Sequence record: OR062527
DNA length: 64,000 nucleotides
Direction: 5' to 3' (one strand)
Source of the DNA: Escherichia phage vB_EcoM_11B_SA_NWU
This document shows, piece after piece, positions 61,979-64,000 of the stretch; position 1 is the stretch's first letter; each line of letters begins with the position of its first letter. Both the position numbers and the translations under genes were made by a program. Below the pieces are notes generated by a model. It saw only the letters and a list, made by a program, of their open reading frames with translations. It made no database searches and was not told the origin of the DNA.

Positions 61979-62308
61979 TCAATTAGAAAATAAATTTATC
62001 CAAGATTGTTCTTTAATTAAAAACGGCTCAGAATCATATGCCATTAAACTTTGAGTAATTAATCCTTTAAATGGTCCATCAATAAATTCCATTGTAAAAT
62101 ATGGAATTTTATTCATTAACCGTGCATTAGGAGCAGTGCATAAAACTCTGCATCCTTTGAATACACCTTTTTGTAATTTGTATTGCTTGGGATAAAATTC
62201 ACTCAAAATATCACTGTTTGCCAAAATTTCAAAATGATTCACCAACTTATTTTTAATAGTTTTTGGCGAAAAATAAAGATATTCAAAAAGCTGCGCATCT
62301 GTCATCAT
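61979..62308 (-). CDS. hypothetical protein (about 109 aa; start at internal Met), coupled to the upstream P-loop gene
   Basis: ATGA overlap with the stop of the 62305-62844 gene. Confidence 0.45.
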   Translation of the reverse strand: MMTDAQLFEYLYFSPKTIKNKLVNHFEILANSDILSEFYPKQYKLQKGVFKGCRVLCTAPNARLMNKIPYFTMEFIDGPFKGLITQSLMAYDSEPFLIKEQSWINLFSN

Positions 62309-62844
62309 TGCATTCCGATTACGAAAAACTGTGGACGAGTAATACCACCAATGCAACATTTACTATTGCAGCAGTAGTGTACAGTGTCCATATGGGCGCT
62401 ATAAATCTTATCCATATCAGGAGATTTAACAGGCTCATCAATTATATACAAAATTCGCGAAAGCGATAAACCTATGAACTTGCTTCCTTTATTACCAATA
62501 AAACTGCGCACAGAATCAGTAAATAAACGAAAACGTATATCATCATTAGAATAACGCGAAAATTCCTTTTTAATGTTATCTGCAGAAATTTTAGCGTAAG
62601 CTGAAGTATTAGAAAGAACAATAACTGTTCCGCCATCATACAGCCAATTAGCAGCAAAGTTAGTCACAGCAACTGATTTTCCGGATTGGCGACCACCGTC
62701 AAGTCGAAGAGTGCAATACTGTTTGAGTAAGTCTTCAAATGGCGGGATATAATCGTTTTTACAAATTTCTTCTACTCTAGCATCAGAATGGTGTGTAAAA
62801 GCATTCATCAGGGATAGATAAGGACCAGTCAAAAATGTTCTCAT
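62305..62844 (-). CDS. P-loop NTPase-like protein (about 179 aa; start at internal Met)
   Basis: Walker A-like GGRQSGKS and Walker B-like YIIDEP; GAGAGA ribosome-binding site; GC-rich structured leader upstream. Confidence 0.5.
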   Translation of the reverse strand: MRTFLTGPYLSLMNAFTHHSDARVEEICKNDYIPPFEDLLKQYCTLRLDGGRQSGKSVAVTNFAANWLYDGGTVIVLSNTSAYAKISADNIKKEFSRYSNDDIRFRLFTDSVRSFIGNKGSKFIGLSLSRILYIIDEPVKSPDMDKIYSAHMDTVHYCCNSKCCIGGITRPQFFVIGMQ

Positions 62845-62979
62845 TTTATTCTCTCTAGATTTGGGCCATTCCATGGCGCATGAATTGTCCATTCCTGCAT
62901 TTACCCATTACCGCACTCAGGCTCGACCTTATCACAGGTTGGCGGGAATACCTCAAATGAGGCTCAGGTTGTTCCCATG

Positions 62980-63453
62980 TTATTTAAATGATTTGACGTA
63001 CTGAACAGAACCTTTACTATTCACAAAGGCAATTTTACCGTTTTTGTTATACATTGTGGCAGTACGTTGATAGCCATAAGTTTGTTTACCAGATTGATAA
63101 CCAACTAATGCAAAATTATCTTCACCCATTTTATTCTGTTTAGCGCGAATGCGTTCATGACCGTGAGCCATAAGAACCTTAGCATCACCAGTTGCAATGG
63201 ATCTACGAGTTTTTTCATCTTCAACTGTATTAACAAAGTCGTCAAATGAATCAAATTTAGCATGAGATTTATTATACAGTTTTCCATCTACTGCATAATT
63301 ATATCCCTGTACATCCATCTCAACTTCTGTACCATCATCCAATACAGCAGTGATTTTCTGTCCTTTTTTAAATTTCAAAAGATCAGTAAAAGATTCAGCA
63401 ATAATTTGAGAATTAATAGCTGCTTCAGTAATAAATTCTTGATATGTTTTCAT
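62980..63453 (-). CDS. capsid internal protein (IPIII-like, 157 aa) with capsid-targeting sequence
   Basis: N-terminus MKTYQEFITE matches the internal-protein CTS; immediately upstream of e as ipIII is in T4. Confidence 0.7.
   Translation of the reverse strand: MKTYQEFITEAAINSQIIAESFTDLLKFKKGQKITAVLDDGTEVEMDVQGYNYAVDGKLYNKSHAKFDSFDDFVNTVEDEKTRRSIATGDAKVLMAHGHERIRAKQNKMGEDNFALVGYQSGKQTYGYQRTATMYNKNGKIAFVNSKGSVQYVKSFK

Positions 63454-63547: not shown

Positions 63548-64000
<453 letters not shown>

Follow-up and report, generated by a model that had tools for sequence, protein, structure and literature searches.

Several structured RNAs other than tRNAs are associated with phage tRNA genes. 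GOLLD and ROOL are large structured RNAs of unknown function that lie beside phage tRNA genes, and T4 carries rnaC and rnaD (the species 1 and species 2 RNAs), stable RNAs, likewise of unknown function, that are structured but are not tRNAs and are encoded on the tRNA strand, within or beside the phage tRNA array. Theta ribozymes, likewise small structured RNAs found with phage tRNAs, are hepatitis delta virus (HDV)-like, lie within 5 nucleotides (nt) of a tRNA and have a nested double pseudoknot with a catalytic C (PMC10879173). PeSL cassettes, which combine an early promoter with a terminator-like stem-loop and act at the level of DNA or transcription, occupy the hyperplastic regions of T4-type phages (PMC2839356, PMC4122927). 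Here we analyze a stretch of 64,000 nt from Escherichia phage vB_EcoM_11B_SA_NWU (sequence record OR062527; “the window” throughout), in which the leader upstream of the genes vs.8 and vs.7 contains a modular structured RNA of ∼75 nt at 62903-62976 on the minus strand. This RNA element is very probably a real, selected structure, and it recurs beside tRNA genes in phages that are otherwise unrelated to T4.

The initial annotation of the window, made from its letters only, had pointed to a GC-rich leader with nested hairpins and a duplicated CCTGAGCC motif. Positions 62880-62979 do have 49% G+C, compared with a window mean of 34.4% (standard deviation 4.9), and 100-nt stretches with 50% or more make up just 0.27%. 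The nested hairpin GGGAA...CCUC-AUUU-GAGG...UUCCC is also present (62944-62976). The duplication is inexact: CCTGAGCC occurs exactly only once, at 62961-62968, and the second site, from 62921, reads GAGCCTGAG. The corresponding sites in T4 read CCUGGACC and GCCCAAGC, and because T4 does not share the repeat we consider it incidental. The whole element is made up of a bulged hairpin (P1) and, after it, a compact three-way junction, with the following parts:

62944-62976, minus strand: P1 bulged hairpin, immediately 5′ of the junction, with outer stem GGGAA/UUCCC, 5′ internal loop CAACCUGAG and inner hairpin CCUC-AUUU-GAGG
62903-62943, minus strand: three-way-junction core, 41 nt, comprising the six parts below
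62940-62943, minus strand: 5′ strand of P3, GCCA
62926-62939, minus strand: P2 hairpin, ACCU-GUGAUA-AGGU
62923-62925, minus strand: joining strand J2/4, CGA
62913-62922, minus strand: P4, GC-CUGAGU-GC
62908-62912, minus strand: joining strand J4/3, GGUAA
62903-62907, minus strand: 3′ strand of P3, U(G)GGU

The general form of P1 is an outer stem of 4-5 base pairs, a 5′-side internal loop of 6-10 nt and an inner hairpin. P3, the closing helix of the junction, is four pairs long; a single base bulges out after the first 3′ pair. The P2 consensus is ACCU-GURNNA-AGGU, in which the hexaloop GURNNA is GNRA-like; J2/4 conforms to C-N-A, P4 has 2-3 pairs and a loop of ∼6 nt, and J4/3 is near-invariant as GGUAA. 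A covariance model scores 66.9 bits over 62900-62945, its sole match in the window.

None of the described RNAs accounts for this structure. No Rfam 15 family overlaps 62900-62976 at E values up to 10, and none falls on the element in ten other loci at E values up to 1; ARAGORN and the Rfam tRNA model call tRNAs beside the element, never on it. Although rnaC and rnaD occupy the same niche, they have no sequence or structural similarity to it, and the T4 tRNA region gives no match to the covariance model, so a relationship to them was rejected for want of any match. The Rfam models of GOLLD and ROOL do not match the element either, which is much smaller than these RNAs. Theta ribozymes share with it a superficial arrangement of closing helix, hairpin and ...AA strand before the 3′ closing strand, but the sequence upstream of the element forms its own covarying hairpin, and the partner strand required for a P1 of the ribozyme kind is missing in every class. 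The candidate catalytic C takes part in a base pair, G-C in 51 of 52 sequences; even the nearest cores begin 39-46 nt away from a tRNA, P1 of the element lying in that interval; and the Rfam HDV models give no match. An HDV-like fold was therefore discarded, its topology not fitting the alignments. With PeSL cassettes the element has in common that it is a conserved non-coding element bordering shuffled genes of the internal protein (ip) region; it differs in having no promoter in the window, in its covarying three-way junction and in its presence in non-T4 phages. The RNA family is apparently new, while the kind of thing it represents, an orphan structured RNA beside phage tRNAs, has precedents.

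Pairing was evaluated in two alignments of distinct sequences. Alignment A3 (36 sequences) has 96.8% of its cells paired, compared with 21-40% for slid partners; the corresponding values for A7 (61 sequences) are 95.7% and 23-45%. All four P3 pairs show compensatory changes in both alignments, with 3-5 pair types each. In neither alignment did any of 500 shuffles attain the covariation score or the percentage of paired cells that was observed. The two measures based on numbers of pairs or of pair types were reached by 3 and 1 of 500 shuffles for A3, and the pair-type measure by 38 of 500 for A7. P1 changes in compensatory fashion within the T4 class, from GGGAA/UUCCC to GGGAG/CUCCC (locus L010) and from CCUCAU/AUGAGG to CCUUAU/AUAAGG (L104). 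Two of its pairs covary in a second T4-like class (GC:9/CG:6 and AU:7/CG:6/GC:1), and the P1 architecture is repeated with different sequence in the rV5-like, Klebsiella, KIL1 and metagenomic classes. One P4 pair covaries in A7 (CG in 42 sequences, UA in 8 and GC in 2). Covariation is strong in P3 and parts of P1, and support is thinner for P2 and P4. G-U pairs are strand-specific: 26 of the 36 sequences have one at the G-Y pair of a first, later revised P4 register, and P3 contains further G-U and U-G pairs. Because of these pairs the fold is assigned to the strand of vs.8 and the tRNAs.

That first drawing of P4, five base pairs with an A·G mismatch, was dropped after a P4-free scan gave diverse members. 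In the corrected register, bordered by C-N-A and GGUAA, a G-C and a C-G pair change together to U-A and G-C. RNAalifold proposed a helix between CCAACC and GGUAAUGG; it breaks in sequences where the P3 register holds and was for that reason discarded as the main fold, though it may represent an alternative conformer.

BLAST with 151 nt of this region returned 865 phage records. Six genera of T4-like phages (Tequatrovirus, Mosigvirus, Gelderlandvirus, Gaprivervirus, Kanagawavirus and Jiaodavirus) carry the element directly ahead of vs.8, 60-90 nt from the vs.8 start regardless of which gene precedes it, and the core remains more than 90% identical even where the vs.8 proteins are only 36-40% identical. 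Some Jiaodaviruses have two tandem copies. Outside this group a 43-nt core at ∼90% identity was found in the rV5-like phage I29, where it is intergenic and adjoins a tRNA cluster. Pattern scans of IMG/VR and metagenomes placed the element in rV5-like phages, in Klebsiella siphophages of 46 kb resembling DP01/BUCT541, in Pseudomonas phage KIL1 and in many unclassified viral contigs. No non-T4 locus with the element encodes vs.8 or vs.7, and no downstream gene family recurs among these loci. Of 38 non-T4 loci scanned, 26 have tRNA genes on the element's strand within 1 kb, whereas none has tRNA genes only on the opposite strand. The RNA begins right after a tRNA 3′ end in L119, L127 and L183, and lies between tRNAs in KIL1, L153, L172 and L099. 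In rV5-like phages of the L030 type it has a dedicated promoter, a sigma-70 consensus (TTGACA-17-TATACT) just upstream, and the promoter of the next gene lies just downstream; in I29 a hairpin and U-tract follow directly. The structured leader proposed initially is therefore borne out as a conserved structure supported by covariation, but not as the private leader of a two-gene module, because it is found beside tRNAs in phages that have no vs.8. Among bacteria and archaea the element is absent from representative genomes of 185,579 species, the 44 pattern matches being chance occurrences in GC-rich coding DNA without the P2 hairpin, and it is absent from 5,426 complete Escherichia coli genomes. 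The lone “plasmid” match is to a 137-kb record with no annotated feature beneath it.

Three relatives show that the element and vs.8 can be separated or the structure degraded. Of the two copies in K65PH164, the one between Ip genes is intact and the one beside vs.8 has decayed (L018 730-775 and 1252-1290). Pu-Krd-SF5 keeps vs.8, the junction RNA being replaced by an early promoter (L019 1130-1290). EP32B has lost P1 and has a mismatch in P2 (L005 1998-2043). These natural variants should be of use for genetics.

An autonomous structured small RNA most likely fits these facts better than a private regulator of vs.8. We consider it about an even call that the RNA is a stable small RNA that acts by binding a factor and not in cis. 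In phages with tRNA arrays, the element would be one “gene” of the array, released by the enzymes that process the neighboring tRNAs. In T4-like phages it would be carried on a polycistronic early transcript running from the tRNA cluster, which in T4 lies ∼6 kb upstream of vs.8 on the same strand, into vs.8. The folded junction would then bind a conserved cellular or phage factor. We favor a conserved cellular partner since phages of Escherichia, Klebsiella and Pseudomonas that are unrelated, several of them without a neighboring protein gene in common, have kept the same core. Our more specific and tentative proposal, to which we give less than even weight, is that these are members of an unrecognized family of trans-acting phage small RNAs, non-tRNA “passengers” of tRNA arrays, with the helix-43 look-alike described below as another, that bind a conserved host machine to redirect or decoy it; the translation apparatus, an RNA-processing enzyme or an RNA-sensing defense may be the target.

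Several observations weigh against the small-RNA reading or the evidence beneath it. Excision and stability are deduced from genomic context, and action in trans and the conserved partner are likewise deductions. About a third of the non-T4 loci have no tRNA in the stretch scanned, and no promoter or terminator adjoins the element in the window or elsewhere in the T4-type class. In T4-like phages, where the element physically forms the 5′ leader of vs.8, a role in cis is possible. Covariation in P2 comes from two sequences only, and the invariance of P2, J2/4 and J4/3 is partly set by the patterns used to collect the sequences. Note that members derived by BLAST show equal conservation of P2 and the joining strands, and that GGUAA was nearly invariant when the search pattern left J4/3 free; that scan yielded mostly coding false positives and just two real variants, GGAUAA and GAUAA. 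The junction is thermodynamically weak, at −2.2 kcal/mol compared with −9.7 kcal/mol for a competing fold, and the leader region folds no better than shuffled sequences (z of −0.37 and about −0.1). The evidence for structure is thus comparative and not energetic, and the fold probably needs tertiary contacts or a bound partner. Finally, the element is undescribed in the literature searched (by the sequence itself and in reviews of T4 RNAs), a search that covered few subscription journals, so an earlier description is possible.

The conservation might instead have nothing to do with RNA, and reflect an N-terminal extension of vs.8, a small open reading frame (ORF) or a DNA recombination anchor of the hyperplastic ip region. 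The T4 record (NC_000866) annotates vs.8 as 219 amino acids (64,253-64,912; L003 2527-3186; compare window 62845-62892), spanning the element; two frames are open over the core, with some substitutions synonymous in one of them, and cassette shuffling is known in the ip region (PMC2839356, PMC4122927). However, the annotated T4 start is 40 codons too early, inside the RNA element, and the extended frame is open solely by virtue of an 8-nt duplication (CTTATAGAG) that fuses a leader frame to vs.8; the window, RB14 and others have stops where T4 reads through. No conserved reading frame covers the core. T4 and the window differ in which frame is open, a conserved start codon is missing from every frame, and upstream stops are 2-12 codons away. 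Two small ORFs within the core, PTCNKVEPKCGNG and QPVIRSSPSAVMG, were rejected because neither starts consistently and because in JK45 the loss of 1 nt within the core shifts the frame. Neither coding nor duplex DNA explains compensatory double changes and strand-specific G-U pairs, and the element sits within tRNA arrays of unrelated phages. We therefore hold an explanation without RNA to be highly improbable. The appropriate annotation has vs.8 starting at MRTF (179 amino acids); in RB14 and several other records the start is also placed too early.

Among explanations that accept the RNA, one holds that it is a cis-acting leader of the vs.8-vs.7 operon, either a riboswitch aptamer or a protein-binding operator, controlling vs.8 translation or mRNA stability. 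The constant placement of the element ahead of vs.8 in six T4-like genera, behind any upstream gene, is what such a leader would show, and the junction looks like an aptamer: it is compact, its joining strands hardly vary, and its closing helix covaries freely. Alternative pairings are also available: UGGGU, the 3′ strand of P3, can pair with GCCCA just after the 3′ hairpin, and ACC is able to pair with either of two GGU triplets. By the standards applied to riboswitches, the architecture is compatible with an aptamer-like core and a covarying closing helix, but a consistent location in a 5′ untranslated region (UTR) is found only in T4-like phages; elsewhere promoters, tRNAs or long non-coding stretches follow the element instead of a consistent ORF. 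Pu-Krd-SF5 retains vs.8 without the element, another gene separates the intact copy of K65PH164 from vs.8, and L034, L095 and L109 have an Ip gene between the two. A cis-acting leader is on these grounds unlikely, albeit not negligibly so. Rather less probable still is an RNA-processing signal that would part upstream RNA from the vs.8 mRNA and from the tRNAs, either as punctuation cut by RNase P, E or III or as a new ribozyme that cleaves itself. In several arrays the element directly follows a tRNA 3′ end, and in T4-like phages it lies between cistrons, as would suit such a signal; near-invariant junction nucleotides are typical of catalytic cores, and the HDV-like theta ribozymes beside phage tRNAs provide a precedent (PMC10879173). 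Yet no Rfam ribozyme family matches, and the segment after P2 has no complementary 5′ strand, which leaves no nested double pseudoknot of the HDV-like topology. In the Klebsiella phage arrays the element is situated between flanking inverted repeats, as its tRNA-like neighbors are, and for this reason it looks like cargo and not like a cut site.

A processive antitermination element, of the HK022 put or lambda nut boxB type, could let RNA polymerase pass terminators and continue into untranslated tRNA arrays or delayed-early genes. This would agree with its promoter-proximal position in L030-type phages, with the terminator-like hairpin that follows it in I29, and with its frequent location upstream of tRNA arrays; the P2 hairpin, with its U-A closing pair and GNRA-like loop, we also take to resemble boxB. 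It is mid-array or after tRNAs, however, in L024, KIL1, L172 and L183, and UGCUCUUU-like repeats in Klebsiella phages covary as stems. No boxA-like partner turned up, although no systematic search for boxA or N was made. We regard antitermination as very unlikely. Mimicry of the GTPase-associated center of 23S rRNA was considered because the P2 loop GUAAUA equals 23S nucleotides 1093-1098. The hexaloop is identical, GGUCGAG occurs 8 nt past the loop in E. coli 23S rRNA, and a true look-alike of helix 43 exists in phage tRNA arrays. Against this, Smith-Waterman alignment of the motif to the whole rrn operon was no better than with shuffled queries, rRNA gives no match to the covariance model, members differ in their hexaloop (GUAAAA, GUGAAA, GUAGCA), and the order of helices differs from H42-H43-H44. 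Mimicry of this kind is barely credible. The autonomous small RNA described above remains the reading we prefer.

The genes around the element and the remaining features of the vs.8 leader are as follows:

63548-63949, minus strand: e (lysozyme)
62980-63453, minus strand: Ip4-type internal head protein gene (Pfam DUF7412, E 1e-95; PHROG internal virion protein), with its stop codon 3 nt ahead of P1
62845-62902, minus strand: vs.8 5′ UTR proper, containing the three features below
62887-62892, minus strand: GGA motif, AUGGAC
62865-62877, minus strand: hairpin GCCAUGGAAUGGC
62851-62856, minus strand: Shine-Dalgarno sequence, AGAGAG
62305-62844, minus strand: vs.8 orthologue, 179 amino acids
61979-62308, minus strand: vs.7 orthologue, 109 amino acids
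61610-61972, minus strand: vs.6, a GrcA-like glycyl-radical protein (Pfam Gly_radical, E 2.8e-18; annotated vs.6 or GrcA in RB14 and T4)
Downstream of vs.6, minus strand: vs.5 and onward

The proximal 5′ UTR of vs.8, comprising the GGA motif, hairpin and Shine-Dalgarno sequence, is a module separate from the junction RNA, since Pu-Krd-SF5 keeps vs.8 and this region but lacks the element. It is kept in all T4-like classes. The hairpin has the consensus GCCAYGGAAUGGC, with an A-U to G-C compensation in S16. Two GGA motifs, AUGGAC and the loop of the GCCAUGGAAUGGC hairpin, are ∼18-20 nt apart, and in this spacing and the placement of one GGA in a hairpin loop they resemble CsrA binding sites.

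The window is a T4-like (Tequatrovirus) genome; the 2.1 kb around the locus share 95-96% identity with genomes of this genus, among them RB14, RB32 and KAW1E185. The 179-amino-acid ORF, with the motifs GGRQSGKS and YIIDEP, and the 109-amino-acid ORF are present as initially annotated. They overlap by ATGA at 62305-62308, where the start codon of vs.7 meets the stop codon of vs.8. A program-made ORF list gives 195 amino acids for vs.8, from an upstream ATG; alignment shows the conserved start to be MRTF. Vs.8 matches PHROG family phrog_1488 (E 4.2e-77; residues 3-179 align with positions 2-177 of the 177 in the profile), and vs.7 gives a full-length profile match to phrog_2049 (E 3.8e-54); both families are of unknown function. 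Homologues of vs.7 carry PF26834 in precomputed tables. Identity to T4 is 96% for vs.8, and vs.7 is 96-97% identical to its counterparts in T4 and RB14. T4 vs.8 and vs.7 (NP_049732 and NP_049731) have the same order, e - ip - (denV) - vs.8 - vs.7 - vs.6 - vs.5, and the same 4-nt overlap, with no substantive difference beyond the annotated start of vs.8. By these matches the ORF pair is assigned as the orthologues of T4 vs.8 and vs.7, known genes that are uncharacterized, and it constitutes a translationally coupled pair of conserved T4-like early-region genes. A novel replacement module, as the initial annotation had it, is refuted because homology assigns both proteins to known T4 genes, the very outcome it had named as speaking against it.

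Aligning 18 homologues of vs.8, with identities as low as 40%, fixes the start at M(R/K)TF; DGGRQSGK, ILYIIDEP and one arginine are invariant, and the Cys-rich tail is not conserved. The Walker A motif is DGGRQSGK[ST] and the Walker B motif ILYIIDEP. A profile search found 90 family members, all ∼170-195 amino acids; most are unnamed, and every one with a source name is a phage or T4-like record. The structure model shows vs.8 as a lone RecA-like (ASCE) ATPase domain. Its RecA1-like fold and its Walker A and B motifs are shared by SF2 helicases (DEAD-box, RIG-I, Mfd), but the RecA2 domain of these proteins is missing from the 179 residues and no Pfam helicase family reaches its cut-off; compared with large terminases (T4 gp17), vs.8 lacks a nuclease domain and the Terminase_6N profile falls below cut-off. 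Since it has neither RecA2 nor a nuclease domain, and no family hidden Markov model scores above cut-off, vs.8 is predicted to be a stand-alone RecA-like ATPase module and not a helicase or terminase. The AlphaFold model of vs.7 has a pLDDT of 59, too low for fold assignment. The suggestion of a defense or anti-defense function found no backing: no PADLOC or NCBIfam family matched, the best PADLOC score for vs.8 being HerA (E 0.03, 10.6 bits) and vs.7 having no match. No role for vs.8 or vs.7 is described in the literature searched.

The flanking genes, a GrcA-like gene and an internal protein gene, are those initially named, and the window indeed has no denV ORF. Both ipII and denV are absent from the window, as they are from RB14 and RB32. 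It does not follow that T4 has denV and ipII in place of the pair, as had been supposed: T4 carries vs.8 and vs.7 at exactly the same position, downstream of denV. Because T4 has both in the same place, vs.8 and vs.7 are not a replacement of denV and ipII; nothing took the place of those genes in the lineage of the window, where they are absent, not replaced. In RB14, teqhad, T4, S16, VR7 and others vs.8 likewise lies between the ip/denV genes and vs.7-vs.6. The denV gene lies between e and ip4 in teqhad (L002 1613-2029), adjoins vs.8 in T4 (L003 2084-2500), and is variously placed or missing in other relatives. Such differing positions in close relatives indicate cassette-like movement within the ip region.

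Other features were noted in and around the tRNA arrays. A look-alike of 23S rRNA helix 43, ∼45 nt long, is found just 3′ of a tRNA in L183 (3349-3400, plus strand), where the Rfam large-subunit rRNA model gives E 6e-5. It corresponds to the L11/thiostrepton hairpin GGCUUAGAAGCAGCC with the junction UUUAAAGAGU. A scan with its 16-nt loop found at least 120 viral contigs (IMG/VR loci L269-L388); the lower stem covaries, the flanks are not rRNA, and many copies are in large tRNA arrays. It is absent from the window. In tRNA regions of the Klebsiella DP01/BUCT541-like phages (L022, L024, L027, L035, L040, L091 and L097), inverted repeats AGUGCUCUUUCCGUUGUG.../...CACAACAGGUAAGAGCAUU flank the junction RNA and neighboring tRNA-like pieces; they covary between units and resemble the processing stems around rRNA genes. 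The rV5-like phages have a tRNA-like gene of 97-99 nt (L004 3082-3180, L008 1714-1812, L175 270-367), for which ARAGORN reads a four-base anticodon (atcc) and which could be an intron-containing or otherwise unusual tRNA. In rV5-like phages the gene after the element (L004 2170-2516; also L030, L101, L102 and L117) has its own strong promoter; its small product carries an AT-hook-like motif, KKRRRRGRP, at the N-terminus and ends in an acidic tail.

T4, among the most studied of phages, has in its early region a strongly conserved, covarying RNA that is unannotated or mis-annotated as coding; it may have stayed hidden there because it was annotated as the N-terminus of vs.8. Its small size makes it amenable to genetics in T4. 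The element is common to T4, rV5-like, Felix-like and siphovirus genomes, and outside T4 it resides in tRNA arrays. The helix-43 look-alike strengthens the view that these arrays hold unexplored non-tRNA RNAs. Phage tRNA clusters are now read as a supply of codons or as an escape from defenses that target tRNAs, and conserved non-tRNA RNAs within them would mean that the clusters serve further functions.

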